Shown here one piece after another: positions 11,595 to 62,011 of a DNA stretch of 64,000 bases. The notes under the pieces were generated by a model that saw only the letters and a list, made by a program, of their open reading frames with translations, was not told the DNA's origin and ran no database searches. The position numbers and the translations under genes are program-made. Source of the DNA: Patescibacteria group bacterium (GTDB lineage: Bacteria; Patescibacteriota; SICC01); contig JBBDXB010000006.1 of the NCBI GenBank assembly GCA_040902515.1, positions 499,419 to 563,418 on the forward strand, given 5' to 3'. The number at the start of each line of letters is the position of its first letter. Position 1 is the first letter of the stretch.

Positions 11595-11615
11595 TTGGCG
11601 CGGTAGGATGGAGGT

Positions 11616-12302: not shown

Positions 12303-12340
12303 CGGAAGCAGCCCCTGGGCTACCGACGCTTATAAGCACA

Positions 12341-12390: not shown

Positions 12391-12554
12391 CATCCCGAGC
12401 CGGGATTTTCAGGAAGCCCTCACGCGCATCAGAGTGTGGCGCGGTGCTCGTGCTGCCGTGGGAACGTAACCCCTCACCATTTCTCGTAGAGATAGGCTCA
12501 AATGGTGGGCAGGGTATGCCTTACACCAGCACCCAGACAAGCATGGTCCGGGTG

Positions 12555-13151: not shown

Positions 13152-13332
13152 AAATAGCTTAACTAACAAATTATTTATCTTCACTATACAGGTTACAAAC
13201 TCCGGAAAACGATGGGCATGCCGCAGTTCCTCAAGGTAGCGTCGGTTTAATGTGTCCATCGGGGTGGGCTCTGAAATCGTGAATTCAAGAAAACCAGGAA
13301 AGGTAATACACTTAAGAAAGCAGTAAGCAGGC

Positions 13333-16207: not shown

Positions 16208-16251
16208 GGATTCAACCTAGCAAGCAAAAATTACTGTGGCAAACTAAACTG

Positions 16252-17250: not shown

Positions 17251-17256
17251 GTGGCC

Positions 17257-18015
17257 TTAAGCTGATTGCATAATTTCTTGAATGTCTTTTGTTACAAGCA
17301 GGACGCACACTTCCCAGTCTGATCGATTGCCGTTAATTTCGAGTTCGCGACTATAGTTGCCAGCGTAAATCTCATAACCAAGATTACGTAATTTTTTAAG
17401 ATGGTCATTTAGCGTAAAACCTATTCTGACACCCTCCCCAGGACCTAGTTCATCAATAATATCTCCGTAGTCAGTGACATCTTGAAAAAACTGTCCAATA
17501 GTTTCAGCTTCTTTTTTAGTTTCGGGGGCGTCGTTTCTCAATTCACTACTCAACCCGGCTCGAACGTACGAAAGTAGATTAGCGCCAGTGCTGACTTTAT
17601 GGACTTTAAGTTTTTGAGGGGGTTTACCCCAGTTAACTTTGGGGGGCCATGCTTTCTCAATTGGATCTAGCGTCTTATCCACCCACTCTTCGTGTTTCTT
17701 TTTCAATCGGCGAAGTTCTTCTGCTGTGCGATGTTTAACTTGATTATCAATTTCTATGTGATGAGTTGGGCACAGAAGTATTCGGTTCTTATACTGATGC
17801 ACATCGTCATCGGGCAGGGGTTCGTATCTTGGACCATCCGACTTATGAGAAACGATATGGCCTTCCTGCCCCAATACCGCATGTTCATCACCTGCAATAG
17901 TCGGGTCCGCTACTAGCTTAATGTGGCACATTACACATCTGTTGCCAGAATTTCCCCAGAGTAGTTTGCGACTCTTTGCCGAAATTGCCTTAGCCATACA
18001 CAAAGCGTACATCAC
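17257..18015 (-). CDS. HNH endonuclease-domain protein (252 aa)
   Basis: CVMCH...H(x)...N...LLCPTHH arrangement of Cys/His/Asn typical of the HNH beta-beta-alpha-metal motif in the N-terminal 90 aa. Confidence 0.75.
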   Translation of the reverse strand: MMYALCMAKAISAKSRKLLWGNSGNRCVMCHIKLVADPTIAGDEHAVLGQEGHIVSHKSDGPRYEPLPDDDVHQYKNRILLCPTHHIEIDNQVKHRTAEELRRLKKKHEEWVDKTLDPIEKAWPPKVNWGKPPQKLKVHKVSTGANLLSYVRAGLSSELRNDAPETKKEAETIGQFFQDVTDYGDIIDELGPGEGVRIGFTLNDHLKKLRNLGYEIYAGNYSRELEINGNRSDWEVCVLLVTKDIQEIMQSA

Positions 18016-18049
18016 AAAATCCGCCGGACATAAGCCCGCCGGATTTTTA

Positions 18050-18474
18050 TGGTGGAGATGGGGGGAGTCGAACCCCCGTCCGATAAAGACCTGTGAAAGA
18101 CGATCTACCGGCGTAGTCCGCTTTTTGCTGTCAGCTCGCTGGTCGAAAACGGACCAAACCCAGCGAACCCAGTCTCAAACGTGTCTCCGAATTTCCTGAG
18201 ACTAGGGAATCCGGATGAGCCCGGAGTATGACGCGCGGTCCTGCCAGCCGGGCACTGGTAGGCGCACGGTCCGGGGTATTACGCCCGGACGGGAGAGACA
18301 GCCAGGCCGGTGAACGCAGTGCGCACGGAATCCCGTACGTCCTGGTACGCGGCGATAGCCTTCTCTTTGAAGTTGGCAGTTGTAATGCCGTTGAACGCGT
18401 GATTAGCGAGGTGAGCGTTCATCCTCGGCCGGCAGCCTGTCAAGGTACTTCACCGTCGAATCCGGTGCATCCCC
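18050..18474 (-). ncRNA. ssrA: tmRNA (ssrA), about 425 nt
   Basis: Reverse complement begins GGGGAUGCACCGGAUUCGACGG and ends GGACGGGGGUUCGACUCCCCCCAUCUCCACCA, the canonical tmRNA 5' and 3' tRNA-like ends; smpB lies 4 kb away. Confidence 0.85.
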
Positions 18475-42467: not shown

Positions 42468-42541
42468 AGGGGTGTAGCTCAGTCCGGCAGAGCACGGGTC
42501 TCCAAAACCCGGTGTCGGGGGTTCGAATCCCTCCACCCCTG
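42468..42541 (+). tRNA. tRNA-Trp (anticodon CCA)
   Basis: Acceptor aggggtg/cacccct, anticodon loop ctCCAaa, encoded CCA follows. Confidence 0.85.
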
Positions 42542-44131
42542 CCAAGAGGTACGAACGGCTTCCAAAGCCTCGTTTCGTTCCTCGGTAGAGATATTTTTCG
42601 CGGTTCTAACCTTGTGATATTCGGCTTCAAGCGCCGGGTACTGTTTTTTGATCGGTTCAAACCATTCGTAGCTTGATAGACGGAATTTTCCGTCCTCAAT
42701 CAACGGGTTCGAACCTAAAGTCATCACGATCTCTTTTTTCTCGTCCGGCGTGCCTTTCTCGAAGCGAACCCGGGCATAGGTGGCGTAGTCGAAGACTTTC
42801 TCCGTAAGCTCGATCCACTTGTCGGCGCGGCTCTCAGTGTCCCGGATTTTCTCTCGAAGGCTCCGTAGCTCGGCCTGAAGTCGCTTCCGATGCGCCGTGA
42901 ACTCTTCGTCATCAATCTGCTGTCGCATGCGCATCCTCGTTAGTTCATCTAGCTCACCCTGAGTGTCCTCAGCCGTCCTGTTCAGGGATGCGTGAGTTTT
43001 CTGTCGATCCGCAATCTCGCGGTCGTTACGGCGGTTCAAACCCTCGATTGCCCACTGCCGAAATTCCGGGGCAATCGTGATACTGCTGAGTTCCTTGTCG
43101 ATTTGCTTCTCAAGCTCAGTGTCCCGCAGGAAAGTACGCTGAGTGCAATCCACGTCTTTCTTCTTGCGGGTGCAATGGTAATAGGTGTACAGGCCAACCT
43201 TTCCGGTTTTCTTTATGATTTTTCGCTTTGTCTCAGCCGTGTAAAGACAACCGCATTCGGCGCAACGGATCAGACCTGTGAACGCGAAAAGATACTTCTG
43301 TGGGCGCGGGCGACCGTCCCGGCCGAGCAGAAGCTGAACCTTATCGTATTCTTCCTTGGTGACCATCGGCTTATGCTTTCCCTCATACCACTGACCGCTC
43401 CCTTTGGGGTACTCGAACTCGCCGTAGTAGAGGGGGTTGGTGAAAATTTTGTAAATCGCGCTCTTGGAGAGCGTCCTGCCGCCAAGCCGCTTCATCTGCC
43501 GTGTGCGAAGCCCCCATTCGTCCGTTGCGACTTTCAGGATGCGTGGTGGCGTATACGCGCCGGTAAGCATCAATTCCCACATCTTTCTGACTAGGGCGTA
43601 CCGCTCCGCGTCGGGCGCTATCGGATCTTCTTCCTCGCCGCCGGTTTTATAGCCGAGCGGCGGTACATGGGGATACCAGCCGCGCTCCGCTTTTCCGCGA
43701 ATGCCACGTATAACGTTCTTGCTAAGGTCGAGAACATATTGGTTAGACATGCCGCTCTCGATATTGAAGAGCAGGACATTGTCATCGGTAAGGTACTCGC
43801 GCTCGTAGGTCAGAATGCTTCGCAGTACTCCCTGTTGAAGTTTCCATTGCAGGTTTGCGCTGTCGATTGGGTTTCGGGAAAGACGGTTAATTTGCCAACA
43901 TAAGATGCCGTCGGCTTCTCCGGCTTCAATCCGTTCAAGCATCTCAGCGAATGCCGGTCGGTTGTTCGGCTTCTTCGCCGATTTCGACTCGGTGAAAACC
44001 TCTTTGACTTTCAACCTTCGCTCAGAGGCAATCTCTTTCAGGCGATTTAATTGATCCTCAATCGACTGCACTTGTCGATCTTCGCTTTCAGAAGACTTGC
44101 GGGCGTAAAGAAAGTAAGTGTTCTGGCTCAT
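42479..44131 (-). CDS. large serine recombinase (integrase of the island); the 3' end reads antisense through tRNA-Trp
   Basis: Resolvase domain YARKSSESEDRQ..S..Q, recombinase domain and a CxxC...C zinc ribbon. Confidence 0.9.
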   Translation of the reverse strand: MSQNTYFLYARKSSESEDRQVQSIEDQLNRLKEIASERRLKVKEVFTESKSAKKPNNRPAFAEMLERIEAGEADGILCWQINRLSRNPIDSANLQWKLQQGVLRSILTYEREYLTDDNVLLFNIESGMSNQYVLDLSKNVIRGIRGKAERGWYPHVPPLGYKTGGEEEDPIAPDAERYALVRKMWELMLTGAYTPPRILKVATDEWGLRTRQMKRLGGRTLSKSAIYKIFTNPLYYGEFEYPKGSGQWYEGKHKPMVTKEEYDKVQLLLGRDGRPRPQKYLFAFTGLIRCAECGCLYTAETKRKIIKKTGKVGLYTYYHCTRKKKDVDCTQRTFLRDTELEKQIDKELSSITIAPEFRQWAIEGLNRRNDREIADRQKTHASLNRTAEDTQGELDELTRMRMRQQIDDEEFTAHRKRLQAELRSLREKIRDTESRADKWIELTEKVFDYATYARVRFEKGTPDEKKEIVMTLGSNPLIEDGKFRLSSYEWFEPIKKQYPALEAEYHKVRTAKNISTEERNEALEAVRTSWQGWRDSNPRHRVLETRALPD

Positions 44132-47686: not shown

Positions 47687-47724
47687 GCCGAGCTACGGCA
47701 ACACTAAGATATATTAGTGTGTGT

Positions 47725-49545
47725 ATGGCTACTGCTACCGCAAAGCGTGAAATCCCAGCCGAAGTAAGGGCGGAAGTACTTGAGCGTGATGAAAACAAGT
47801 GTAGGGAATGCGGATCCAAGCAGGGACTCAACCTGCACCACGTCTTGCCGGAACAGTTTGGTGGCAAAGAGACTCCCGACAATCTGATAACCGTCTGCAA
47901 GCTCCACCACAAAGCGAAACACGTGGAATTCCACATGTTCTATGGAGATAGCCGTAGTGTGGTTGCGCATATGAGGCGCTACGCCGACCAGGTACGTCAG
48001 CTGAGCGGTAACTTCTTCGGGTTGATGGGCGAGGTACGGCTTAAGCCCGTTCTCTACCTGCTGACCGGACAACGGACATTCCGTCCAAGTCAGGAAGAGG
48101 TAATCCGGGACGTGCTGGCGGGGCGTGACGTGTTATTTGTGACCCCGACAGGATCAGGGAAGTCACTTTGCTTTCAATTGCCGGGTCTTTTACTAGACGG
48201 ACAGACCATGGTTATTTCACCCCTGAAGTCTCTGATGAAGGATCAGGTTGAAGGATTGCTCAAACGGAAAGTACCAGCTACCTATATCAACAGTGACCTC
48301 GGTACGCATGAGAAAAACCAGCGGATAAAGTTTGCCTTAGAAGGGTTGTTCCGGTTCCTATATGTAACCCCCGAGCGGTTTTTCCAGCCGCGCCTCAACC
48401 TGAAGAACAGACTTATTCGAAAGTACAAACTGTTGGCGGTAGACGAAGCTCACTGCATCGATCTCTGGGGGCGCAACTTCCGGCCTTCTTACGCGAAGCT
48501 AGGAGAGCTGAAAAAGGCTCTGGGAAGTCCTCCGACCTTGGCGCTCACGGCAACGGCATCGAAACGAGTCCAAAAAGAAATACTTAAATCCCTTGATATG
48601 CCGAACGCGAAGCGTTACGTCACGGGTTTTCACCGCCCGGAGATTGAACTTTATAACCTGCAAATACCGGTCGGCTTCAAAGATGAAAAGACAGGGGACT
48701 TACTCAGAAGCGAAGAAAAAGTCGATGCCGCGAAAGCGGATCTCATCGAGCGGATACTCAAAGCTCCGAAGTACTACAAGCCAAACCCTCGGCGCCGGTG
48801 GCGAATGATAAAACGAGATATTGCTCCTAAGAAATTCGCGTTGGTTAAGGATGCGCTTTCAGAGCATCGAGAGCAGAGGGTTTCTTTCTACCAAACTTTC
48901 TTTCGGAAGTATAAGGGAGAGCTGCGCGCGGCGGTAAAGCTCATCCGGGACAAAAAACTCAAGCGTGGCGTGAGCCGTTTGACCAAGGCTCGCCAGAAAG
49001 TGCTTTGGCAGACGTATCAGATCGTCAATGACGACAAAGTTCTGATATTCGTGCCGACCGTTACCAAGGGAAAGGAATTAAGAAAAGAGCTAGAGAAGCG
49101 GGGCATTGCCATTGATTTCTACCATGGGAAACTGCCGGTTCACGAAAAAACCCAAGTACAAAACCGCTATTCCGGACTGTTTGGCAAGCAAAGCCGGGCG
49201 CTGATTAGCACCTCCGCATTCGGCATGGGAATAGACATTTCAAACATCAGGCGAGTGGTTCACTACTCGGTTACGGCAAGCCTAGAGGATTACTATCAGC
49301 AAATCGGGCGAGCGGGCAGGGATCGCAAGCGGTCTAAAGCGTTTCTGCTCTATGCCCCGGGCGACGAGGAATTAATCCGCTTCATGAACGAAGTTTCCAA
49401 AGAAGACAAGGAGGAACCGCTAACCGCACAGCAACGAGAACGCCTCGTTCAAATCGAAGAAAAAGAGTTGTCGGCAATGCTCGACTATCTCCAGGCGCCC
49501 CATCAATGGCGTCACATCCTCGATTACTTCGGAGAAACCGTTTAG
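47725..49545 (+). CDS. HNH endonuclease fused to a RecQ-family DNA helicase (no RQC/HRDC domains; about 130-aa basic insertion between the RecA lobes)
   Basis: N-terminal CRECGS...LHHVLP...DNLITVC..HH; RecQ motifs TFRPSQEEVIRDVLAGRDVLFVTPTGSGKSLCFQLP, VISPLKSLMKDQVEGL, LLAVDEAHCIDLWGRNFRPSY, AFGMGIDISNIRRVVHY, QQIGRAGRD. Confidence 0.85.
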   Translation: MATATAKREIPAEVRAEVLERDENKCRECGSKQGLNLHHVLPEQFGGKETPDNLITVCKLHHKAKHVEFHMFYGDSRSVVAHMRRYADQVRQLSGNFFGLMGEVRLKPVLYLLTGQRTFRPSQEEVIRDVLAGRDVLFVTPTGSGKSLCFQLPGLLLDGQTMVISPLKSLMKDQVEGLLKRKVPATYINSDLGTHEKNQRIKFALEGLFRFLYVTPERFFQPRLNLKNRLIRKYKLLAVDEAHCIDLWGRNFRPSYAKLGELKKALGSPPTLALTATASKRVQKEILKSLDMPNAKRYVTGFHRPEIELYNLQIPVGFKDEKTGDLLRSEEKVDAAKADLIERILKAPKYYKPNPRRRWRMIKRDIAPKKFALVKDALSEHREQRVSFYQTFFRKYKGELRAAVKLIRDKKLKRGVSRLTKARQKVLWQTYQIVNDDKVLIFVPTVTKGKELRKELEKRGIAIDFYHGKLPVHEKTQVQNRYSGLFGKQSRALISTSAFGMGIDISNIRRVVHYSVTASLEDYYQQIGRAGRDRKRSKAFLLYAPGDEELIRFMNEVSKEDKEEPLTAQQRERLVQIEEKELSAMLDYLQAPHQWRHILDYFGETV

Positions 49546-49602: not shown

Positions 49603-52600
49603 ATGAGTACCGACCAAACATTTCTTACGAATGAGCCGGGAAAACGACTCGTAGACCGGTTCAGGACGCTTATCAACGATACCCGGCTATTTGACTGTCT
49701 GGTCGGGTATTTCTTTGCCAGCGGTTTTCATCAGCTCTACAACTCTTTAGAAAAAACCGAGAAAATCCGCATCTTGATTGGTCTAAAAACTGATCGCACC
49801 GTGAAGAACCTATTTGACGAAGGCCAGATACCGCTCGGCGACTCCCACGCGGAAATCCGAGATGAGGGAGCTAAGCAATTGGCGAAAGAGATGGCTGAGT
49901 CTGACGACAGCCCGGACGTAGAAGCCGGAGCAAAGAAATTCATCGAATGGATACGAAGCGACAAGCTAGAAATCCGCGCTTGCAACGAACGTCTTCACTC
50001 CAAGCTGTACATCATGTCCTTCAAGAAAGGCCACATAGACGAAGGGCGGGTTATCACCGGTTCCAGCAACTTCACTAGTCCCGGACTGAAAGATAACCTT
50101 GAATTCAACGTCGAACTTAAGAACCGCTCTGATTTTGACTATGCCCTGAACAGTTTTAACGAACTATGGGAAAAATCAGTCGATTTGTCGGATCGTTTCG
50201 TGGATACGATGTCGAAAGATACTTGGCTTAACGACAAGATCACCCCATACGAGCTATACCTGAAGTTCCTGTATGAGTATTTCAAGGAACGACTCTCACC
50301 GGAAATCACAGCCGAGGACATTTACCTGCCCGAACGCTTCAAGAAGCTCCAGTATCAGCAAGAGGCCGTTGCTAGCGCGTACAAGATAGTTCGTGAGTAT
50401 GGAGGGGTATTCCTGTCCGATGTGGTCGGCCTCGGCAAGACCTACATGGCGGCGATGCTGGCAAGCCAACTTGAGGGTGGAACTTTGGTAATTGCGCCCC
50501 CATCGCTTCTCGACGAGAACAACCCCGGATCGTGGCCGAATGTATTTCGAGACTTTGGAGTGCGGCGCTTCCGCACGGAGTCGCTCGGAAAACTAGACCA
50601 TTTGCTTACACAAGGGGTCGAGCGGTACAAGAACGTCATCATCGACGAGTCGCACCGTTTCCGCACTGAGGACAACAAGACCTACGAGTCGTTGGCCAAG
50701 ATATGTCGGAACAAAAGAGTCGTGTTAGTTTCTGCGACTCCGCTGAATAACACTCCCAAGGATATCTTTTCCCAGATCAAGCTTTTCCAGCCACCAAGGA
50801 AAAGTGACATCCCGGGTGTCTCGAACCTCGAAGAATTCTTCGGGAGTCTCGACCGGAAAATCAAGAAGATTAAACGTGGAGAAGATTTTGAAGGATACGC
50901 GAAGACGACAAAGGAAAACGCCAAGGAAATCCGCGAAAAGGTACTTCGACATCTAATGATCCGTCGAACCCGCAAAGAGGTGGCTGAGTTCTTCAAAGAC
51001 GATATCGAAAAACAGGGCTTATCCTTTCCGGAAGTGAAGAACCCGAAGGCTGTCTACTACCAGCTCAGCAAGGAAGAAGATCGGATTTTTACGAGAACGC
51101 TGACGCTAATCAAGAACCTTAATTACGCCCGGTACAAGCCGATGCTCTATTACCTCAAGGACATTGGGCAGGCCGAGGAGCAGGCACAGATTAACCTCGT
51201 AAAGTTTATGGAAGTGTTACTGGTTAAACGCCTCGAAAGCAGTTTCTTCGCGTTTCGTCAGACCATTGACCGGTTCGTAGCGACCTATGAAGGTGCCATC
51301 TCGGAGTACGACAACGGCCGTGTCTTTGTGAGCAAGAAGTACGCCAATAAGATTTTCGGGTTACTGGAGTCTGGGGACGAAGACGGTATCCAGCACCTCT
51401 TAGCAACGAAGGATGCGGATGCCTATAAATCTTCTGATTTCAAAAAGACTTTCCGGGAAGACCTAGTGGCCGACTTGAAGGCGCTTCAGGAAATCCAGTC
51501 GATTTGGAAATCCATTAAGCGCGATCCGAAGCTTGAGCAGTTACTAGCAGATCTAAAATCAGAAGACGTTCTAAAAAAGAGCAAACTGATTATTTTCACG
51601 GAGTCAGGGGAGACTGCCGACTATCTGCACAAAGAGATTTCAAAGCATTCTAAGGAAGCCATTAAGTTCTCAGGCTCGTCTAGCGAAGAGCGACGTCGGC
51701 AGGTCATCGATAACTTCGACGCGAACGCACGCAATAAGAGTGATGAATTCAGGTTGCTAATCACTACAGACGTCTTAGCTGAAGGCGTGAACCTTCACCG
51801 CTCTAACGTAGTCCTGAACTACGACATCCCTTGGAACCCAACGCGGATGATGCAACGGGTCGGCCGGATCAATCGTGTAGATACACCCTTCAAAGTCATC
51901 CACTCATACAACTTCTTCCCGACGACTCAAGCAAACACGCAGATTAAGCTGCAAGAAGCGGCTGAGGCGAAGATTATGGCGTTTATCGACATGCTTGGCG
52001 CGGATGCGAAGTTGTTGACCGAGGGAGAGGAAATCAAGTCGCATGACCTCTTCAGCCGCCTGAATTCGAAAGCTACGATTACTGGCGAAGAAGAAGACAC
52101 AGACAGTGAGCTGGCATTCTTCGAAGTGATTAGGAACGTCAGGGACAAAGACTCGAAGCTGTTTGCGAAGATCAAACGGTTGCCGAAGAAGGCTAGGGCG
52201 GGTCGCAAAGCCAAAGACTCACGTCCGGGCTTGGTTACCTACTTCCGCAAAGGAAGGCTTGAAAAGTTTTACCTGTCTTCAAAAGAGATTGATTTCATGG
52301 AAGCTGCCAAAGTGTTTGAGGCTGAACCACAAGAGAAGACAGTTCCGCTAGACAAGGCATATTACTCACTGCTGGATCGGAACAAGGGGGCGTTTACTGC
52401 TGCGACGACCGAGGACGAAGAGGCGGCCAAGGGCAGGGGCGGCCGGGATACGACCACCAAACTCAGGAACATACTTACCTCCAGTGAGATGAGAGGTTAC
52501 GAAGGCTTCTCTGACGAAGATGAAACATTCTTGAATGGTGTCGTCCGAGCGCTAGAAGAGGGCAGCGTACCTGCTCACACGCGCAAAGAGCTTCACAAAG

Positions 52601-52767
52601 CGCTAGAAGCGGAGATTAAGGGTGGAAAAGCCAACCAGACCAGAATTTTGGCACTAACCAGACGGAACTTCCCGGAAGAGTTTCTCGCGTCCAACCGTGA
52701 TACCGGCAATCGTCAAGCGGGCCCGCGCGAAGTAATACTTTCCGAATACTTTGTTCAGAAGAAGTGA
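49603..52767 (+). CDS. PLD-family nuclease domain fused to an SNF2-family (DExH) helicase
   Basis: HSKLYIMSF...GSSNFTSPG (HxK...GSxN) at the N-terminus; SNF2 motifs LSDVVGLGKT, IIDESHRFR, VLVSATPLNN, helicase-C ITTDVLAEGVNLH and MQRVGRINR. Confidence 0.85.
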   Translation: MSTDQTFLTNEPGKRLVDRFRTLINDTRLFDCLVGYFFASGFHQLYNSLEKTEKIRILIGLKTDRTVKNLFDEGQIPLGDSHAEIRDEGAKQLAKEMAESDDSPDVEAGAKKFIEWIRSDKLEIRACNERLHSKLYIMSFKKGHIDEGRVITGSSNFTSPGLKDNLEFNVELKNRSDFDYALNSFNELWEKSVDLSDRFVDTMSKDTWLNDKITPYELYLKFLYEYFKERLSPEITAEDIYLPERFKKLQYQQEAVASAYKIVREYGGVFLSDVVGLGKTYMAAMLASQLEGGTLVIAPPSLLDENNPGSWPNVFRDFGVRRFRTESLGKLDHLLTQGVERYKNVIIDESHRFRTEDNKTYESLAKICRNKRVVLVSATPLNNTPKDIFSQIKLFQPPRKSDIPGVSNLEEFFGSLDRKIKKIKRGEDFEGYAKTTKENAKEIREKVLRHLMIRRTRKEVAEFFKDDIEKQGLSFPEVKNPKAVYYQLSKEEDRIFTRTLTLIKNLNYARYKPMLYYLKDIGQAEEQAQINLVKFMEVLLVKRLESSFFAFRQTIDRFVATYEGAISEYDNGRVFVSKKYANKIFGLLESGDEDGIQHLLATKDADAYKSSDFKKTFREDLVADLKALQEIQSIWKSIKRDPKLEQLLADLKSEDVLKKSKLIIFTESGETADYLHKEISKHSKEAIKFSGSSSEERRRQVIDNFDANARNKSDEFRLLITTDVLAEGVNLHRSNVVLNYDIPWNPTRMMQRVGRINRVDTPFKVIHSYNFFPTTQANTQIKLQEAAEAKIMAFIDMLGADAKLLTEGEEIKSHDLFSRLNSKATITGEEEDTDSELAFFEVIRNVRDKDSKLFAKIKRLPKKARAGRKAKDSRPGLVTYFRKGRLEKFYLSSKEIDFMEAAKVFEAEPQEKTVPLDKAYYSLLDRNKGAFTAATTEDEEAAKGRGGRDTTTKLRNILTSSEMRGYEGFSDEDETFLNGVVRALEEGSVPAHTRKELHKALEAEIKGGKANQTRILALTRRNFPEEFLASNRDTGNRQAGPREVILSEYFVQKK

Positions 52768-52768
52768 T

Positions 52769-55700
52769 ATGCAGAATACAGAAGCTACGAAGCTGGTAAA
52801 CGAAGTTCTCGGCAGCCCCTTTGATCGGGGCGGTTTTGGTTCATTAGCCAAGAATATCTTGAAGAAACTCGATGACCGAAGTGAAAACAGTACATTTTCG
52901 TATTCCGGGAACCTCATTCCAGACGCGTTCAAAGGTCATGTGAGCAAGTACGAGCGGCTGGGTAAGTACCAAGACCCCAGCAGTAAGCACCACACCGTTG
53001 ATGTGCTAATAGTTCACTTGGCAAAAACCGACGCCCTAGATCGGGCAAGGACGATGCAAAGGAACTTTATTGCCCGGTATCTAAATGGTAGTCGCGGCGG
53101 GCAACAAAAGGATGCGGCGCTAGTTGCGTTCGTAGCTCCAAATAGAAACGACTGGCGATTTTCTCTGGTACGAATGGATTACAAAGACTTCGGAACGAAG
53201 AAAGAACTTTCACCTGCACGCAGGTACTCATTCCTTGTGGGGCAGGATGAGCAAACTCATACAGCGAGAACGCAACTCGTAGACATTCTGACTTCTGACG
53301 AACTGCCGGATATAGAAGTACTCACATCGGCGTTCAATGTAGAAAAGGTAGGACAGGAATTCTTTGAAAGGTACAAAGAATTATTCCTTCAACTGAAGGA
53401 AGCCCTTGATGGAATGATTGAGTCAGACAAGTCCATTGCCCGGGACTTCAGCTCGAAAGAAGTGAGATCTGAAGATTTCGCAAAGAAACTACTGGGTCAA
53501 GTGGTCTTTTTATACTTTCTTCAGAAGAAAGGATGGTTAGGGGTTCCCAAAGAGAAAACTTGGGGCGAGGGGCCAAAGGATTTCCTTCGAAGACTGTATT
53601 TAGGGAAATACGGCGAATACAGTAACTTCTTTAACGATGTCCTTGAGCCTCTCTTTTATGAAGCACTATCCACGGAACGGAGTAAGCACTATTACGACCG
53701 ATTGAAATCAAAAATTCCTTTTCTCAATGGCGGATTATTTGAGCCAATCGACGATTACGATTGGGTAGATACCGACGTTTTGATACCCGACAAATTATTC
53801 TCTAATTCAGATAATGCAGACTTAGGTACTGGCATTTTGGATGTTTTTGATAGGTACAACTTCACAGTCAAAGAGGATGAACCACTTGATAAAGAAGTAG
53901 CGGTTGATCCCGAGATGCTGGGAAAAGTATTTGAAAACTTATTGGATGTCAGAGATCGTCGGTCGAAGGGTTCCTACTACACCCCTAGAGAAATCGTCCA
54001 TTACATGTGTCAGGCATCACTGCTTAATTACTTGGACTCCCGCATCGACGGGAAAATCTCTAGATCCGATTTAGAGTCTTTCTTAAGGACTTCCGACATG
54101 GTGGTAGAACATGACTCGCTCATTCAGAAAAGGGGAAAAGAAACCTCGGCATACCAATATAAATTGCCAGAAAATGTTAGGGCGTACGCAGATAAGATAG
54201 ATAGCCTTTTGTCTGAGGTGCGGGTCTGCGATCCGGCTATAGGCTCAGGCGCTTATCCGGTAGGGATGATGCATGAGATAGTTCGTGCCAGACAAGTTCT
54301 TGCAATATTCAGCAGCAAACCCTTTTCTGCGTATCAGCTCAAGCTAGACGTCATCCAAAACTCCTTATTTGGTGTTAATATTGACTCCGGAGCCGTTGAG
54401 ATTGCGAAACTCAGACTTTGGCTTTCACTTGTGGTCGATGAAAATTCTACGGACGAAATTGACCCACTCCCCAACCTTGATTACAGGATTATGCAGGGGA
54501 ACAGCCTCGTCGAAGATTTTGGAGAAATTGAACTATTCGACGCAGAAGTCCTAAAAGATGAGTCGTCGCGTGAGGGAAAGAAACTTGCAGTTCGTAACCT
54601 CAAAAAACAGGTTGAGACTCTGGAGAAAGAGTACCTCTCGCTTCATAAATCTTCTCAACTTACGGACGCACGCAAGAAAGCCATCAACAAGGAAATACGA
54701 AGAACACGTCGAAGGTTGAAATTATTAGCCGGCAGCAAAACAGATGACCGCCTCAGTCTGTTCTCGGACAAGGGTGAAGTTGATTACAAACAGGTTCTTC
54801 GAGAACTCTTTGAAAAGTTTTTTGATGCTTCTCATAAGAAAGAAAAAGATCAGCTTAGAAGTAATATAGAAGAAATCCAATGGCACTTAATTGAGTCTTC
54901 GTTAGTCAAAGAGGGTAAGGCAGACAAAATTGATGAGATTGAAGATTTACGCTCCAAAAAACAGAGACCTTTTTTCATTTGGCATTTGTACTTTCTAGAG
55001 GTTTTCGAAGAAAAAGGTGGCTTCGATATCGTCCTTGGCAATCCGCCGTACTTAGAGTCGCGACACCCCAACTTCAGCGAGTCAATGAAGGATGACGTAC
55101 AGCGTGCCGCCCATAAGAGGTGGCCGCAAGACGCCGATAAAATCACAAGGGGATCGGACTTACTTGTTTACTTTTTTGAACTTGGTCTTTCATTAGTAAA
55201 CAAAAGTGGGCAGGTCATCCTTTTGACACAAAACTCTTGGCTCGACACAGAATACGGAAAGAAGTTTCAAGAGTTCTTACTGAAGCATTCGAAGGTAGAG
55301 TCGATTATCGATAGCGATTTCAAACACTTTGATAGTCGCCTAGGACCCAACATTAATACAATCATCACAACTCTCCGATCGGGCGGTAACGAGAAGTCGA
55401 ACACCTATCTTGCAAAGTTTCACGAGAACTATTCTGATATGCCGCTTACGCTCTCAAGCAAACTGGGTAAATTAGCGACTATCAAGAATTTAACTTCGGA
55501 TAGTGGCCTGTTACAGAAGTACAAATGGGGATTTATTCTTTCGAGTAATCAAATATTGCTTGAAGCCGTAGATGCACTGAGTAAGAGCGGGCAATTCTTA
55601 TCCGAGCTAGATGGTATCTCGGTTGGGCAAGGGTTAAACGTGTCAAAATCTTCTATTTACGAGAAAAGCCTCTTAAAGAAGTTTCCCTTCGTAAAGAAAG

Positions 55701-56329
55701 CGACCGTACCTATCGCAACCAGTGCGGATAAGCCAAAGTTCGAAATAACTTCTGTCGAGTGCTTCTTAGTAGACTCAACTCGATTGTCGGAGGAAGAACG
55801 TGAAAAGTTAAAAAAAGCTGAGATTAATTTGTATACTTCGTCTTCAACGTCTAAGGATTATCCAACCATGTCGTTGCCTCGTGGCCTGAGTGATAAACAC
55901 TACTGCACCGTCCATGAAATAAAGACTCATACGGCAAGCGCTGTTGATCTTTATTCGGAGAAAGATTTTGGGAAAGATCTTCGACTACTGAACATCTGGG
56001 CAGTATTAAATTCGACATTAGGTTGGCTCATAAGAGAGACATCTGGAAGAAAGAATTTGGGCGGGGGAATGCTCAAGGCAGAGGCAGTAGACTTGAAAGC
56101 TTTTCCTCTGTATCTCGATCTGAAAAAAGACAAACAGATCAGCAAGATCTTTACGAAGACAAAAGGGCGGCTGGTGAAATCCGTGTTCGAAGAAATGAAA
56201 ACTGAAGAGCATAAAGCCATAGATAGGATTGTGTTCGACCACCTTTCGATACTCCCAAAAAATAGAAAAGGTTTGATTGATCTTACGCTTGAAACAGTTA
56301 GGGATAGGTATGCCAAATCCAAAACCTAG
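52769..56329 (+). CDS. gamma-class N6-adenine DNA methyltransferase of the MmeI/Eco57I/PglX/DrmMI lineage (about 1186 aa) with a long N-terminal domain and C-terminal putative target-recognition region
   Basis: Motif X YYTPREIV, motif I VCDPAIGSGAYP (nt about 54230), FFIWHLYFLEVF hinge, motif IV VLGNPPY (55040-55051), LNGGLFEP motif; the ATG at 52769 is 2 nt after the upstream stop (the track TTG at 52751 overlaps). Confidence 0.85.
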   Translation: MQNTEATKLVNEVLGSPFDRGGFGSLAKNILKKLDDRSENSTFSYSGNLIPDAFKGHVSKYERLGKYQDPSSKHHTVDVLIVHLAKTDALDRARTMQRNFIARYLNGSRGGQQKDAALVAFVAPNRNDWRFSLVRMDYKDFGTKKELSPARRYSFLVGQDEQTHTARTQLVDILTSDELPDIEVLTSAFNVEKVGQEFFERYKELFLQLKEALDGMIESDKSIARDFSSKEVRSEDFAKKLLGQVVFLYFLQKKGWLGVPKEKTWGEGPKDFLRRLYLGKYGEYSNFFNDVLEPLFYEALSTERSKHYYDRLKSKIPFLNGGLFEPIDDYDWVDTDVLIPDKLFSNSDNADLGTGILDVFDRYNFTVKEDEPLDKEVAVDPEMLGKVFENLLDVRDRRSKGSYYTPREIVHYMCQASLLNYLDSRIDGKISRSDLESFLRTSDMVVEHDSLIQKRGKETSAYQYKLPENVRAYADKIDSLLSEVRVCDPAIGSGAYPVGMMHEIVRARQVLAIFSSKPFSAYQLKLDVIQNSLFGVNIDSGAVEIAKLRLWLSLVVDENSTDEIDPLPNLDYRIMQGNSLVEDFGEIELFDAEVLKDESSREGKKLAVRNLKKQVETLEKEYLSLHKSSQLTDARKKAINKEIRRTRRRLKLLAGSKTDDRLSLFSDKGEVDYKQVLRELFEKFFDASHKKEKDQLRSNIEEIQWHLIESSLVKEGKADKIDEIEDLRSKKQRPFFIWHLYFLEVFEEKGGFDIVLGNPPYLESRHPNFSESMKDDVQRAAHKRWPQDADKITRGSDLLVYFFELGLSLVNKSGQVILLTQNSWLDTEYGKKFQEFLLKHSKVESIIDSDFKHFDSRLGPNINTIITTLRSGGNEKSNTYLAKFHENYSDMPLTLSSKLGKLATIKNLTSDSGLLQKYKWGFILSSNQILLEAVDALSKSGQFLSELDGISVGQGLNVSKSSIYEKSLLKKFPFVKKATVPIATSADKPKFEITSVECFLVDSTRLSEEEREKLKKAEINLYTSSSTSKDYPTMSLPRGLSDKHYCTVHEIKTHTASAVDLYSEKDFGKDLRLLNIWAVLNSTLGWLIRETSGRKNLGGGMLKAEAVDLKAFPLYLDLKKDKQISKIFTKTKGRLVKSVFEEMKTEEHKAIDRIVFDHLSILPKNRKGLIDLTLETVRDRYAKSKT

Positions 56330-57101
56330 TCCGAAGAAAGGATACACACGCACGCGCAATGTGTTCGACCCTGAGTCAGCTGATACGTATAAACTGTCTA
56401 GATCAAAGCTTGAGAACTTCATACGATGTCCTCGTTGTTTCTATCTTGATCGCCGACTCGGAGTAGGACAGCCGCAAGGCCCGCCGTTTCTACTGAACTC
56501 AGCGGTGGACGAGCTGCTGAAAAAGGAATTCGACCGACATCGGAAAGCTCAGACCAAGCACAAGATTTGCGAGCAATTCGGGGTGGACGCGATCCCACTC
56601 AATCACGAGAAGCTCGATATTTGGAGACACAACTTCGCCGGGCTGGAAACACTACATAAGCCAACGAACTTATTGATTTTCGGGGCGGTGGACGACATCT
56701 GGGTCAACCCGGCCGGGGAGTGGATTGTGGTCGACTATAAGGCCACCTCAAAGCGTGCTGAGATCACACTGGATACCAAGTGGGGCAAAGGCTACAAGAG
56801 ACAGTTAGAGATTTACCAGTGGATATTGAAGCAAAACGGCGAGCCCGTCTCGGAGACCGCATACATCCTGTACTGCAATAACATTCTTGATCGGGAAGAC
56901 TTCGATAATCGCCTCGATTTTGAGGTAAGCATGTTCAAGCACGAAGGCGATACCTCGTGGGTCGAGCCGAAGATTATCGAGGCTCATAAGGCTCTAGTTT
57001 CTGGTCAAATCCCCTCGCCAGCCGAAGACTGCGAGTATTGTGCTTACCGAGAAGCCGCGAGATTAAAGGAAGTCGATGTCACCAAAGAAATCAATCAGTG
57101 A
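56310..57101 (+). CDS. Cas4/RecB-like PD-(D/E)xK nuclease with N- and C-terminal CxxC pairs (putative Fe-S)
   Basis: IRCPRCFY...GAVDDIWVNPAGEWIVVDYKATSK (D, ExK)...RQLEIYQWIL...YILYC...EDCEYCAY; the ATG overlaps the MTase stop. Confidence 0.75.
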   Translation: MPNPKPSPKKGYTRTRNVFDPESADTYKLSRSKLENFIRCPRCFYLDRRLGVGQPQGPPFLLNSAVDELLKKEFDRHRKAQTKHKICEQFGVDAIPLNHEKLDIWRHNFAGLETLHKPTNLLIFGAVDDIWVNPAGEWIVVDYKATSKRAEITLDTKWGKGYKRQLEIYQWILKQNGEPVSETAYILYCNNILDREDFDNRLDFEVSMFKHEGDTSWVEPKIIEAHKALVSGQIPSPAEDCEYCAYREAARLKEVDVTKEINQ

Positions 57102-58008
57102 CCTCTCGGGCGAACTGAGGGAAGTAATCAATAGCAGTATTTCCCTGCGCAATCAGGTGTACCAACAGAAAGCAAAGGGAGCGTGGGATCGGCTTTGGGC
57201 TTCAATGGATGCGCTTGACGATGCACAACTCGCAATCGAGAAGTTCCAAAAAGCGTCCTCAATATCATATCTGGAGTTATACGGACTCCTGCAAGCTTTC
57301 ATTGTTCAACAGGATAGCGTTAATCACATACGGCAGACGACCCTTAATGCACCTCTGATTAAATGGGATAAAGCAGAGCCGAAACTTAATCAGATACGGT
57401 ATTTGAGAAACGAAACAGTTGGTCACCCGACTGACATTCGAACAGGCAAGACGATAGTCTACTGCAATATAAACCGCAGGTCGGTATCTAAAACGAGCTT
57501 CGAGTACATGATTTGGAGTCAGGCCGGAGCGCAACACAAAACCGTCGATGTGACTGATGTAATCAAAACGCAAGATGTCGAAGTCGCGCGCCTAATTAGG
57601 AAAATCATCGCTGACATTAAAGCGCATGAAGTTAGGTTTAAGAAGCAGTTTTCGGGAAAAAAATTGAAAACCGACTACTCGCAGATTAGTCACTACGAGT
57701 TCGAAAAACTTTATCTGTACCAAAACAACCCTGAAATTGCACAGATTATGTTCGGTTTAATAAAAAAGAAGTATGCAGAACTCCGGACTGAACTGGCAAA
57801 ACGCTACGGCGACTTTAGCACCACTATTAACGTCGGAGGTCTCAAAATTGTAATCGACGAACTGGACGAACTTGTTAAACGGGTTGGGACAAAATTGAAC
57901 GAAGGTGTCCCTGACGCCTTTGATTTCAATGTTTATGTCGAAAACCTAGATAGTAAATGGAAAGAACTGGGCGAAATGATCGATGAAACAGACGAGAAGT
58001 TTAGCTGA
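57076..58008 (+). CDS. hypothetical helical protein (310 aa) with a possible HEPN-like Rx5H motif (YLRNETVGH)
   Basis: ORF overlaps the previous stop by 26 nt; the motif match is weak. Confidence 0.55.
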   Translation: MSPKKSISDLSGELREVINSSISLRNQVYQQKAKGAWDRLWASMDALDDAQLAIEKFQKASSISYLELYGLLQAFIVQQDSVNHIRQTTLNAPLIKWDKAEPKLNQIRYLRNETVGHPTDIRTGKTIVYCNINRRSVSKTSFEYMIWSQAGAQHKTVDVTDVIKTQDVEVARLIRKIIADIKAHEVRFKKQFSGKKLKTDYSQISHYEFEKLYLYQNNPEIAQIMFGLIKKKYAELRTELAKRYGDFSTTINVGGLKIVIDELDELVKRVGTKLNEGVPDAFDFNVYVENLDSKWKELGEMIDETDEKFS

Positions 58009-58072: not shown

Positions 58073-59908
58073 ATGCGGGAAATTCATGGTGACGCAAAAA
58101 CCGTTCGGGACCTACTCAAAGGGGTTAAGTACTCCATTGACTACTACCAGCGTGAGTACAAGTGGGGCGGGAAACAGCTTCGCGAGCTTATCGATGACCT
58201 GAGTGGTAAGTTTTTGGAAGTCCACAAACCGGGCAACGACCGCAAGAAAGTTTCCGAATACCCCCACTACTTTCTCGGTTCGATCATCATCAGCAAAAAA
58301 GAGAGTGCGAATTATGTCGTGGACGGTCAGCAGCGTCTAACGACGTTGACCCTTCTCCTGATTTACCTAAGAAACCTCCAACGCGAGCGTGACGATAAGG
58401 TTTCGATTGACGAATTGGTCGCTTCCGAAACCTACGGCGAACAGTCATTCAACATCGAGGTAGACGAACGCATCCCGGTAATGGACGCGTTGTTTAGCAA
58501 TAAATCATTTGATGCGACTGACCGATCAGAGTCAGTACAGAACATCCTTAAAAGGTACGAGGAACTCGATGACGCTTTTCCCGAAGAACTGCGCGAAGAC
58601 GCGCTTCCGTATTTCATAGACTGGCTTCAGCAGAATGTTCATTTTGTGGAAATTACCGCGTATTCCGACGACGACGCCTACACGATTTTCGAAACGATGA
58701 ACGATCGCGGCCTTTCCCTGTCCCCGACGGACATGTTGAAAGGTTATTTGCTCGCGAATGTAGACAGATCCAAGCGTAATACCGCAAATGATTTTTGGCG
58801 CAAACGCATGAGCGAGTTAACCGATGTGGGTAAGGAAGCTGAGGCAGATTTCTTCAAGGCATGGTTGAGGAGCCAATACGCAACCAAGATCCGCGAGCGA
58901 AAACGGGGTGCTACTCCCGAGGACTTTGACCGGATTGGTACCGAGTTCCACCGGTGGTTGAGAGATGCCAGCAAGAAAATCGGCTTGGAACAAGACGACG
59001 ATTTCTATCAATTGATTGACCGGAACCTCAACTTCTACAGCCGACAGTATCTCGAATTGATGCGGGCGTCCCGGGAGCCAGTTGAGGGACTAGAACATGT
59101 ACTTTATAACGCCCACCATGGGTTCACCCTTCAATACATGTTGTTGTTAGCCCCGCTCACTCCAGACGACACTGACGAAGTAGCTCGGCAAAAACAGCGA
59201 CTAGTTGGGCAGTTCGTGGACATACTGATTACTCGAAGAATTTGGAATTTCCGATCCATCTCATATTCAACAATGCAGTACGCCATGTTCCTTGTTATGC
59301 GGAGCATACGAGGTCTCGAGCCCGACCAACTTGGGGAGACGTTAAAAAAGGCGCTTGGTGAGCAGGACGAGACTTTCTCAACCCAAGAAGACCTTTACCT
59401 ACATCAACAGAACCGGAGGGCTCTGCATCGGGTTCTGGCGCGCCTTGCTGACAGCGTAGAGGTTGGCTCGGGGCAACCGACGCAGTATATGAATTTTGTC
59501 AGTGACACCGGAAAAGACAGGTTCGAAGTAGAGCATATTTGGGCCGACAAATACGATCGGCATAAGGAAGCGTTTGCACACCCCAAAGACTTTGCAGATT
59601 ATCGTAATCGCATCGGCGGTCTCTTGCTCTTGCCAAAGAGTTTCAATGCTAGCTACGGTGATTTGGCATACGAGAAGAAACTCCCTCACTATCTGACTCA
59701 AAACCTACTTGCCCGGTCGCTGCACCCGCAGTGCTATGAGCGCAATCCTGGCTTTATAAAATTCGTGAAAGAAACCGGGTTGCCGTTCCGGGCTCACGAA
59801 AAATTTACGAAGGAAGATCTCGACGCGCGAGGAGCCCTCTATCGACAGCTTGCAGAATACGTATGGAACCCCAATAAGCTGATAGGTGATGACGTTAGCG
59901 GATCTTAA
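58073..59908 (+). CDS. GmrSD-family type IV restriction enzyme (DUF262 ParB-like NTPase plus DUF1524 His-Me nuclease)
   Basis: DYYQREYKW and VVDGQQRLTTL (DGQQR) in the N-terminal half; FEVEHIWAD...N..N in the C-terminal half. Confidence 0.8.
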   Translation: MREIHGDAKTVRDLLKGVKYSIDYYQREYKWGGKQLRELIDDLSGKFLEVHKPGNDRKKVSEYPHYFLGSIIISKKESANYVVDGQQRLTTLTLLLIYLRNLQRERDDKVSIDELVASETYGEQSFNIEVDERIPVMDALFSNKSFDATDRSESVQNILKRYEELDDAFPEELREDALPYFIDWLQQNVHFVEITAYSDDDAYTIFETMNDRGLSLSPTDMLKGYLLANVDRSKRNTANDFWRKRMSELTDVGKEAEADFFKAWLRSQYATKIRERKRGATPEDFDRIGTEFHRWLRDASKKIGLEQDDDFYQLIDRNLNFYSRQYLELMRASREPVEGLEHVLYNAHHGFTLQYMLLLAPLTPDDTDEVARQKQRLVGQFVDILITRRIWNFRSISYSTMQYAMFLVMRSIRGLEPDQLGETLKKALGEQDETFSTQEDLYLHQQNRRALHRVLARLADSVEVGSGQPTQYMNFVSDTGKDRFEVEHIWADKYDRHKEAFAHPKDFADYRNRIGGLLLLPKSFNASYGDLAYEKKLPHYLTQNLLARSLHPQCYERNPGFIKFVKETGLPFRAHEKFTKEDLDARGALYRQLAEYVWNPNKLIGDDVSGS

Positions 59909-60182
59909 GAGACGCCTTCGTCAAACGAAGTTCCGGTTCGCAAAAACCTATAGCGATACGTACCCCCACGAGTACCTGGTCAAAGAATTGGATGCTGCCC
60001 TCTTTGATGAAATGGCGAAGTTGATTGACGGGAAGGGCTACAAATCCGACTTCCACGGTCAGGAACATACGTACCTAGAGCTTGATGGTTACAAGTACTG
60101 GCACTATGAAACTATCCTTAACAGGGAGCCCCTGAAGGGGTACAAGGATGTAGAGAAGGAGTTAAATGCATCTGACCGATGA
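59889..60182 (+). CDS. hypothetical protein (97 aa)
   Basis: ORF overlapping the GmrSD stop. Confidence 0.45.
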   Translation: MTLADLKRRLRQTKFRFAKTYSDTYPHEYLVKELDAALFDEMAKLIDGKGYKSDFHGQEHTYLELDGYKYWHYETILNREPLKGYKDVEKELNASDR

Positions 60183-60423
60183 AGACATAGACGGGTTCCG
60201 CCGTATCTATAAGAAGCGGTTTGGCGAAGACATAAGCCGGGAAGAAGCACGGGAGGAGGGATCAAGCCTGCTTCGTCTGATGAAAGTCGTCTACAAACCA
60301 GTCACGCAGGAGCAGGTGGATAGCCTCCGTGAGCGCGATATGAAGCGAGTGGACGAAGCCTACGACTTTATCTTCGCAAAGGCTTTGAAAGAGAAGAAGA
60401 GTGAGTCAAATGCTGACGATTGA
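60166..60423 (+). CDS. small conserved protein (85 aa), paralog of 44269..44460
   Basis: See 44269..44460. Confidence 0.5.
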   Translation: MHLTDEDIDGFRRIYKKRFGEDISREEAREEGSSLLRLMKVVYKPVTQEQVDSLRERDMKRVDEAYDFIFAKALKEKKSESNADD

Positions 60424-61180: not shown

Positions 61181-62011
61181 GTGACTTTGGACAACCTCGA
61201 AGAAAACACGCTCTACATCTACACTGATGGCTCTTCGCCTAGCTCGCCCCGGGTCGGAGGGATTGGGATTGTCTTTGCGTGGATCCGGCCGGACGGGACG
61301 GTCGGAGAGTACAAAGACGAACAAGAGGCCTATCGAAGCGGGACAAACAACCAAATGGAGCTGGAAGCTGGCCTGCACGGATTGCGGGAGTTCGACAGGG
61401 CGAGGTTTCCGATAGACGTGCGGGCTGAGATCTCTTCCCATTCGAGGATTGTCATCAGGTCGGACTCCAACTATGTGGTCGAGAACTTCTACCGCGCCTT
61501 CTCCGAGTGGTCTGGGTCTTGGCTGAAAAGATCCGGTGAGCCGGTAGCGAACCCTGAACAGTGGAAGGCGCTGGTGAGGATGGTAAGGCGACTCCAGCGC
61601 AAGAGTGTCAGCGTGCGGGTAGAAAAAGTGAAAGGCCATAGTAGAAGCGTACTCAACCGGAAAGCTCACAAAATGGCCGGGAGGTCAGCCAGGAGGAAAC
61701 CTACTAAGCAAGTCAGTCACATTCGAGTACGGAGGAAGCAGGGTAAAAAATCGGTCGACTCGAAATTGGTTCCGATGCTCGGCCAGAGGATAACCATCTA
61801 CATCGTTACCGACACGTACCTGAAGCCCTCCAAGAGATATCGTTACAAATACCAGGTGAGATCGAGGGGAAAGTTCTTCCACCAGACTGCCCTCGCTCAC
61901 TCAAAGGTGATGATGAGTGCCGGACATACTTATCGGGTTCGCCTTGGCGAAGATCAGAGCAATCCTACGATTGTGAAATGCTTCGGTGAGGTGCCGAAGA
62001 AAGGGAAGTAG
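61181..62011 (+). CDS. RNase HI-domain protein with about 130-aa basic C-terminal extension (GTG 61181 or TTG 61187 start)
   Basis: LYIYTDGSS, TNNQMELEAGL, IRSDSNYVV, VKGHSRSVLNRKAHKMA align to RNase HI D10/E48/D70/H124/N130; the position equivalent to D134 is His. Confidence 0.7.
   Translation: MTLDNLEENTLYIYTDGSSPSSPRVGGIGIVFAWIRPDGTVGEYKDEQEAYRSGTNNQMELEAGLHGLREFDRARFPIDVRAEISSHSRIVIRSDSNYVVENFYRAFSEWSGSWLKRSGEPVANPEQWKALVRMVRRLQRKSVSVRVEKVKGHSRSVLNRKAHKMAGRSARRKPTKQVSHIRVRRKQGKKSVDSKLVPMLGQRITIYIVTDTYLKPSKRYRYKYQVRSRGKFFHQTALAHSKVMMSAGHTYRVRLGEDQSNPTIVKCFGEVPKKGK

Follow-up and report, generated by a model that had tools for sequence, protein, structure and literature searches.

What does a Cas4-like nuclease do at the 3′ end of an operon that resembles a restriction-modification (R-M) system, and does the gene that follows it share in the task? 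The question is raised by a 64,000-nucleotide (nt) stretch of DNA, hereafter the window, from a member of the Patescibacteria, or candidate phyla radiation (CPR), a large branch of bacterial diversity whose members have tiny genomes and are mostly uncultured, and in which the function of "solo Cas4" proteins has been open since 2017. The window encodes a nuclease of this kind of 263 amino acids (aa), followed by a 310-aa protein, 100% identical to one that NCBI annotates as "hypothetical protein." We found that the nuclease repeatedly sits just 3′ of interchangeable R-M modules, on a mobile island of low GC content. With moderate confidence, we read the two as separate accessory defense genes at the 3′ end of the R-M-like operon, one for a DNA-end nuclease and the other for a HEPN-type RNase. 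Three features carry the argument:

42100-64000: low-GC island adjoining tRNA-Thr and tRNA-Trp genes (GC 0.43-0.54 versus about 0.65 for the host).
56310-57101, + strand: 263-aa Cas4-like nuclease of the RecB family, PD-(D/E)xK type, with a predicted four-cysteine cluster (Pfam, PADLOC, homologues).
57076-58008, + strand: 310-aa protein of an unnamed family, with a predicted N-terminal HEPN-like domain and a C-terminal helical domain (profile search, AlphaFold2 [AF2]).

The open reading frame (ORF) for the nuclease runs from an ATG at 56310 to a TGA at 57099-57101, and that for the 310-aa protein from an ATG at 57076 to a TGA at 58006-58008. The coordinates, lengths, and quoted peptides of both ORFs in the original prediction, an earlier reading of this DNA, were right, as was the 26-nt overlap between them. 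It also had the nuclease start overlapping the stop of the preceding methyltransferase gene; the two ORFs do overlap, by 20 nt in different frames, with the start codon clear of the stop codon (TAG, 56327-56329). Shine-Dalgarno-like sequences lie within the preceding genes, AGGGA before 56310 and AAGGAAG before 57076. The NCBI gene call for the nuclease (P0013) starts at V66 to give a protein of 198 aa, which would lose the CPRC motif described below. The ATG at 56310 is the better start, because homologues are conserved from residue 14 onward.

The nuclease matches Pfam PF12705 (PDDEXK_1) with 53.6 bits against a cut-off of 22 (E 3.8e-14) and the PADLOC Cas4 models at 1e-9 to 6e-8; phage exonuclease families match as well. 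An alignment of 41 homologues (A6) gave the conservation of its motifs, all on the + strand:

56427-56438, + strand: N-terminal cysteine pair C40-P-R-C43, both invariant (41/41).
56691-56741, + strand: catalytic core, D128-D129 (GAVDD) and the (D/E)xK motif D142-Y-K144, invariant (41/41).
56802-56816, + strand: RecB-type QxxxY motif Q165-Y169 (QLEIY), invariant (41/41).
57030-57041, + strand: C-terminal cysteine pair C241-E-Y-C244, invariant (41/41), with no third Cys at +6.

Profiles and alignment both support the earlier view of a RecB/Cas4-like PD-(D/E)xK nuclease whose core is flanked by cysteines, and the 263-aa protein is predicted to be an active enzyme with an intact active site. GAVDD had correctly been picked out as a catalytic motif, and the proposed YILYC motif is borne out by the invariance of Y185 and Y188. 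Two other motifs had been misplaced: the (D/E)xK motif is D142-Y-K144 and not the E137-based motif of EWIVVDYK, and the RecB-type motif is Q165-Y169 instead of QWIL. The CxxC pairs expected at both ends (CPRC and CEYC) are present, and they are not there by chance, because both are invariant in all aligned homologues. They had been taken for the architecture of Cas4 and AddB. Canonical Cas4 and AddB proteins have one N-terminal Cys and a CX2CX5C motif; the pattern here is CxxC...CxxC instead. At residue 228, the window protein has Ala where at least 90% of the family share a fifth conserved Cys. A four-cysteine metal-cluster "staple" on the nuclease core is very likely. Because the pattern departs from the canonical one, the choice of metal stays between iron-sulfur (Fe-S), which is plausible, and Zn as the alternative.

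How close to Cas4 is this protein? Like Cas4 (TIGR00372/PF01930; Sulfolobus SSO0001, PDB 4IC1), it belongs to the RecB-family PD-(D/E)xK nucleases of about 200 to 260 aa with D, (D/E)xK, and QxxxY motifs and four flanking cysteines; it differs in curated score, in cysteine spacing, and in the cas/CRISPR (clustered regularly interspaced short palindromic repeats) setting. The score for TIGR00372 cas4 is 34.8 bits, under the curated cut-off of 65, and the cysteine pattern is not that of proven Fe-S Cas4 and AddB proteins. PF01930 is not among the Pfam matches of the window nuclease and is present in some homologues. A search of PDB sequences with the family profile found no close relative with a solved structure, Cas4 itself (4ic1) appearing only at an E-value of 0.25. 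There were no CRISPR-like spaced direct repeats in the window and no cas genes among the scanned ORFs at 40-64 kb. By curated profile criteria, the protein is thus Cas4-like and not Cas4. With the nuclease domains of AddB and RecB it shares the catalytic fold family, the predicted metal-cluster staple, and the company of helicases (RecQ-like and SNF2) in the same operon. Unlike them, it is free of a fused helicase and arranges its cysteines in another pattern; a Chi-type function is not implied.

The family is the CPR "solo-Cas4" of Hudaiberdiev et al. 2017 (PMC5704561), which is likewise stand-alone and common in CPR bacteria with small genomes. That study left the function of the CPR/DPANN proteins open and noted R-M neighbors in some DPANN archaea (PMC5704561). 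A word-based homologue search returned at least 8000 matches, mostly CPR proteins of about 250 aa, and members occur in no fewer than 588 species-representative genomes, almost all of them CPR. The window nuclease falls in a divergent clade: identity is 74-85% among its members and 51-61% between them and the remaining family.

In this clade, all three relatives whose contexts were read (3/3) adjoin an R-M module, a different one each time. The first (L003) lies beside a type III-like N6_N4 methylase and a ResIII protein. The second (L004) comes after two C5 methylases, a protein with an N6 methylase domain and a Type_ISP_C domain, and Vsr, and the third (L005) adjoins an HsdR-like helicase, with an HSDR_N nuclease domain of its own, and a methylase-S fusion. 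The nuclease ORF overlaps the preceding R-M gene in three of the four clade members, by 4 nt in both L004 and L005. The physical coupling of nuclease to methylase gene originally described in the window is therefore seen again in its close relatives, which lie beside methylases or R-M modules. The window island and the related contigs also have backbone genes in common, namely a serine recombinase, an HNH-RecQ helicase, and an 85-aa ORF. The window recombinase is 51% identical to that of L004 and 34% identical to that of L005, and both of those islands carry the nuclease too. Among the genes shared between related islands, the nuclease is the best conserved. The clade is thus a mobile sub-clade of the CPR nuclease family, always adjoining an R-M module of whatever type.

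At 9410-11297 of L004, next after the nuclease come a 177-aa ORF of unknown family and a SMODS cyclase of the type found in cyclic-oligonucleotide-based antiphage signaling systems. This arrangement indicates that the slot 3′ of the nuclease also holds swappable defense cargo.

For the wider family, we searched 6 kb around the nuclease in 80 species loci, by tblastn with 15 R-M and defense proteins and by Pfam scan. R-M or defense genes were found in 14 of the 80 loci; 13 have them upstream of the nuclease and 1 has them downstream, with flanks of nearly equal length (binomial p = 0.001). In one of them (L051), an SNF2 helicase, an Eco57I methylase with 36% identity to that of the window, and an OLD-family ATPase precede the nuclease.

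These data suggest how the nuclease could serve restriction. Judging from gene order, it would be co-expressed with the adjoining R-M module, and it may resect or degrade the DNA ends left by restriction, which would make restriction irreversible. Cas4-family helpers of other defense systems are documented (PMC12094033, PMC5704561). Its action would resemble the aid that ACE1, a Cas4-family nuclease, gives to Argonaute by boosting long-A Argonaute interference (PMC12094033), or that of the UvrD-Cas4 fusions found beside type III R-M and Dcm-Vsr genes (PMC5704561). In both comparisons, a Cas4-family gene lies beside an innate DNA-targeting system whose action its product is shown or proposed to enhance, and the L004 copy directly follows Dcm-like methylases and Vsr. 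Unlike the UvrD-Cas4 proteins, the window protein has no fused helicase. Unlike the ACE1 setting, the ORFs listed at 40-64 kb, where most small ones were not scanned, include no recognized Argonaute gene, and cooperation is here inferred from gene order alone.

Several observations weigh against a restriction helper. The operon already has nuclease domains of its own, HKD and HNH. The immediate neighbors of the nuclease in 72 genomes are heterogeneous and largely housekeeping genes, such as those for PolA, XseA (downstream in 5 of 71 loci), and tRNA synthetases, and the P0061 and P0017 nucleases are placed among core genes. With housekeeping genes around most members of the wider family, adjacency to R-M genes could mark a cargo hotspot and not cooperation. 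The main rival is a conserved repair or backbone gene beside a hotspot, which gene-order data cannot separate from a restriction helper: the nuclease would be a host enzyme of repair or recombination, or would belong to the backbone of the mobile element, and defense genes would pile up just upstream. Its spread over so many, almost exclusively CPR genomes at 51-61% identity is consistent with this, as is its better conservation, across related islands, than that of the adjoining cargo. On the P0015 contig, variable methylase, DpnI-like, and toxin-antitoxin (TA)-type genes lie upstream of the nuclease and core genes downstream. Against it, the window gene lies 14 kb inside the low-GC island and has an island-like GC content (0.50), the nuclease overlaps the preceding R-M gene in most clade members, and the adjoining module varies each time while the nuclease stays 75-85% identical. 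Together with the documented Cas4-family helpers, these points lead us to regard a host or backbone enzyme as possible, though somewhat unlikely, and to keep the accessory defense nuclease as the preferred reading.

Is the 310-aa protein an RNase of the HEPN class? It had no match in Pfam, PADLOC, NCBIfam, or PHROGs, and a word-based search found only 9 relatives. An exhaustive profile search uncovered a large family of 1761 cluster representatives (clusters at 50% identity), of which 300 match at E ≤ 1e-30, nearly all of 300 to 330 aa. The regions in question are the following, with conservation scored here and below over 135 divergent family members:

57406-57426, + strand: R111-N-E-T-V-G-H117, candidate Rx5H RNase motif (R111 in 134/135, H117 in 135/135).
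57181-57645, + strand: predicted HEPN-like four-helix core, residues 36 to 190 approximately, interrupted between helices 3 and 4 by a beta meander (121-158) (models).

The peptide YLRNETVGH, originally singled out as compatible with a HEPN motif, is thus present, at R111-H117, and conserved across the family. By itself, a match to Rx4-6H is uninformative, because 52% of shuffled versions of the protein hold one by chance; it is the conservation that counts. G116 and P118 are each kept in 134 of the 135 members, and at residue 112, 117 members have N, 6 have H, and 3 have D (126/135), giving the consensus IRxxR[N/H/D]xxxGHPT with a five-residue spacing between R and H (Rx5H). D80 is kept in 125 members, and it is among the residues found in at least 90% of them, with R108, D45, D49, Q78/Q79, Q166, Y207, K211, R243, and D306. 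Three of the 135 members have weak Pfam matches to HEPN_AbiU2 or HEPN-like_int. The extra regions of the longer members (P0185, P0189, P0257, P0177, and others) contain no Pfam domains.

The full-length AF2 model has a predicted local distance difference test score (pLDDT) of 88. Modeled with 104 sequences, the N-terminal 166 residues reach a pLDDT of 95.5 and a predicted template-modeling score of 0.89. The domain model has helices at 36-59, 65-90, 102-116, and 159-190 and a four-strand beta meander at 121-158. In it, H117 is the first loop residue after helix 3, and D80 lies in helix 2. HEPN proteins have N, D, or H right after the R of the motif and carry an acidic residue in helix 2 (PMC3710099). 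The model and the alignment show these features, and the protein therefore fits the HEPN placement of the motif. A Foldseek search of the PDB with the N-terminal domain placed a HEPN toxin first (8yuf_B, probability 0.97, root-mean-square deviation [rmsd] 4.2 Å over 94 columns, 20% identity). HepT-type toxins (8yuf, 8xdj, 8xeh, and 6m6u) account for 9 of the 50 rows listed. The other listed rows mostly have an rmsd above 7 Å, and the few lower ones are short local alignments.

The protein shares further traits with known HEPN families (AbiU2, AbiJ, and HepT of HEPN-MNT): the Rx5H motif at the end of helix 3, the acidic residue of helix 2, and a setting in R-M operons or defense islands. The spacing RNxxx[AG]H is the same as in AbiU2. 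It differs from them in the beta meander after the motif, in a further helical domain, of about 120 aa, at the C terminus, and in that profile comparison detected no similarity to AbiU2 or to any Pfam HEPN model. Unlike the HepT-MntA pairs, it has no MNT antitoxin; the related loci scanned had no MNT-like neighbor, and in the window the flanking genes are those for the nuclease and a GmrSD protein.

A number of results speak against the HEPN assignment. The Foldseek E-values of the HepT matches, 0.09 to 0.3 with none below 0.09, are not significant. Foldseek of the full-length model against the PDB gave no HEPN match, only spurious coiled-coil, BAR, and G-protein-coupled receptor hits. Profile-profile comparison by hhalign of the family profiles A2 and A3 with an AbiU2 alignment (25 homologues) and with a single AbiU2 sequence detected no relationship. 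A beta meander between motif and helix 4 is atypical, canonical HEPN inserts lying between helices 2 and 3. Two further searches were uninformative: Foldseek against viral structures (BFVD) returned nothing for the 310-aa protein, and a profile search of PDB sequences with its family only coiled-coil noise.

The insert drew matches of its own. At residues 121-190 (57436-57645), Foldseek gave weak matches, many of them to RNA binders of alpha-beta-beta-beta-alpha fold: the double-stranded RNA-binding domain (dsRBD) of RNase III, a Drosha-DGCR8 complex chain, HPF/YfiA, and Alu-domain proteins of the signal recognition particle (SRP). Probabilities were 0.33 at most, and the rmsd exceeded 12 Å except for short SRP Alu-domain alignments (7.5-8.5 Å). 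These matches give no more than a hint of an inserted RNA-binding module at 121-190.

Should the R...GHP loop serve another purpose, the 310-aa protein would be no RNase at all, and instead a helical adaptor, a sensor, or a nucleotide-binding protein. Such a role could explain why no HEPN family gives a significant sequence or structure match, and it suits the atypical insert and the conserved polar residues far from the motif (R15, Y207, K211, R243, and D306). The motif is invariant nonetheless, its spacing, the residue following R, and its position in the predicted bundle are all right, helix 2 has its conserved acidic residue, and among PDB matches that span about 95 columns or more, HepT toxins alone have a low rmsd. 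We therefore find a non-RNase role unlikely. From the invariant motif and the predicted fold, the 310-aa family is probably a HEPN member. The HEPN suggestion of the original prediction survives the modeling, which yielded a four-helix bundle with HepT toxins as top PDB matches (E 0.09).

As a HEPN domain, the N-terminal part would make the protein a metal-independent RNase acting as a dimer, which the C-terminal helical domain may keep inactive until infection. DUF4145 is among the solo Abi-type (abortive infection) HEPN genes of R-M operons. The protein would act like such solo genes inside R-M operons, exemplified by AbiU2 and AbiJ; for the family itself, an abortive-infection role is one that we only infer. 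Anantharaman et al. described solo HEPN Abi genes "in operon with R-M system" (PMC3710099), and the 310-aa family matches this description.

The surroundings in the window are those of an integrative mobile island. Between 1 and 42 kb, GC content is mostly 0.61 to 0.69, with a dip at about 12-18 kb; it is low again from about 42 kb up to the window end. The right end of the island was not found inside the window, nor did a search within the window find an attachment-site repeat. The recombinase at the island start is followed by an AAA_25 ATPase and a CHC2 zinc-finger protein, and these opening genes by a tightly packed gene string on the + strand, in which promoter- and terminator-like sites are no more frequent than in shuffled sequence. 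The neighboring genes are:

42479-44131, - strand: large serine recombinase (Pfam Resolvase, Recombinase, and Zn_ribbon_recom), its 3′ end overlapping tRNA-Trp.
47719-49545, + strand: HNH endonuclease fused to a RecQ-family helicase, 608 aa, first gene of the string (TIGR00614 recQ_fam, 309 bits; Pfam HNH); 55% identical to a gene of the related island L003.
49603-52767, + strand: HKD (PLD) nuclease-SNF2 helicase fusion, 1054 aa (Pfam PLDc_2, SNF2-rel_dom, and Helicase_C; PADLOC "HKD+Snf2," 1.1e-50).
52751-56329, + strand: Eco57I-type (type IIG-like) N6-adenine DNA methyltransferase, 1192 aa (Pfam Eco57I, 3.2e-30; PADLOC REase_MTase_IIG, 5.5e-201).
58073-59908, + strand: GmrSD-type (DUF262 and DUF1524) type IV restriction enzyme, directly 3′ of the 310-aa ORF (Pfam GmrSD_N, 1.5e-34; GmrSD_C, 6.1e-9).
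59886-60423: two small overlapping ORFs of 98 and 85 aa, with no family match.

The HKD-SNF2 protein is likely the restriction or translocase partner of the methylase. The genes upstream of the nuclease resemble class 1 defense island systems associated with R-M (DISARM) or Hma through a PLD nuclease and partial matches to DrmD (3.4e-35), DrmMI (2.6e-28), and HmaA (2.2e-24). Unlike in DISARM, PLD domain and SNF2 helicase form a single protein, and the methylase matches type IIG far better (5.5e-201). DrmB/DUF1998 was not among the matches of the nine island ORFs scanned (47.7-62.0 kb), and for DrmA there was only a weak partial match of the SNF2 protein (2.8e-18). DISARM was rejected for these genes, which are without DrmA and DrmB. 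The 85-aa ORF is likely an island backbone gene, because it has counterparts in L003 (75% identical) and beside the L004 recombinase (40%); a MazF-like inhibitor family in PHROGs also matches it weakly (E 0.019). At the island edge (61181-62011), a 276-aa protein combines an RNase H domain with a basic extension at its C terminus. A second low-GC patch (0.44) at 16000-18474 lies directly beside a 425-nt transfer-messenger RNA gene (18050-18474, - strand) and may be another element, integrated at that gene.

With these genes in view, could the nuclease be the cutter itself, that is, the restriction endonuclease subunit of a methylase-helicase system? Its ORF overlaps that of the methylase, and near the N6 methylase/Type_ISP_C protein of L004, which lacks the nuclease-helicase half of type ISP enzymes, the only nucleases are Vsr and the Cas4-like protein. 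The window operon, however, already encodes an HKD nuclease on the SNF2 helicase and an HNH domain, and the HsdR-like protein of L005 has its own HSDR_N nuclease domain. The occurrence of a near-identical nuclease with four unrelated R-M architectures is also hard to reconcile with a dedicated subunit. We consider this role improbable.

Does the 310-aa gene belong with the nuclease at all? A search with a family alignment (A1) gave 13 metagenome loci. At L001, a 59%-identical homologue lies inside a type I R-M operon, between hsdM and hsdS and beside an AbiU2 gene. Other members follow a DUF2321 zinc-ribbon gene, precede an AAA_15/AAA_21 ATPase gene, or are found among unrelated genes. A tblastn search of plasmid records yielded one distant homologue (24% identical), a "hypothetical protein" of Marinobacter 3 kb from a SIR2 gene, and phage records contained no homologue by the same method. 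Across the loci read, no partner is conserved, antitoxin-like or other, which is a further point against the preferred reading of the 310-aa protein. The original coupling of this gene to methylase and nuclease thus has no conserved link elsewhere. As there is no conserved partner and the nuclease is in none of its loci, the family behaves as a stand-alone gene of variable regions.

The L001 operon has a peculiarity of its own: five small genes interrupt it between hsdM and hsdR (8947-13617), namely the 310-aa member, the AbiU2 HEPN gene, and three ORFs of 149, 198, and 181 aa without family match.

That nuclease and 310-aa protein form one two-gene module, such as a toxin-antitoxin or sensor-effector pair, as their 26-nt overlap in the window might suggest, is very improbable and was rejected, because they were never together in the other loci checked: no 310-aa member occurs in the nuclease contexts L003-L011, L105, and the P0015 contig (gene lists) or L003-L006 and L010 (tblastn), the nuclease is in none of the 310-aa contexts L001, L002, L092-L098, and L106, and the 80 species loci, in which the 310-aa protein was not searched for, stood outside this check. 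The two genes are neighbors by island packing and not a conserved pair.

Both themes of this locus, solo Cas4-like nucleases near R-M genes and solo HEPN genes within such operons, are already in the literature. Two aspects go beyond them. One is that defense genes tend to lie upstream of the CPR nuclease, which islands with swappable R-M cargo have captured. The other is a large HEPN-like family, of about 1,760 clusters at 50% identity, that PADLOC, Pfam, and NCBIfam miss. Read jointly, and rather unlikely to hold as a whole, the CPR Cas4-like nuclease would be a universal "finisher" for unrelated DNA-targeting defense systems, and the 310-aa family a new HEPN branch with an RNA-binding module at its active site. 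If the first part were true, the systems served would be type I, III, ISP, and IIG R-M, OLD-family nucleases, and HerA-containing modules, which would gather directly 5′ of the nuclease and be co-transcribed with it, and serine-recombinase islands would have captured the nuclease plus a swappable R-M slot. If the second were true, the alpha-beta-beta-beta-alpha insert (dsRBD- or HPF-like) would point to the targeting of ribosomes or structured RNA. The island linkage and the upstream bias make a role of the CPR nuclease as a defense helper testable.

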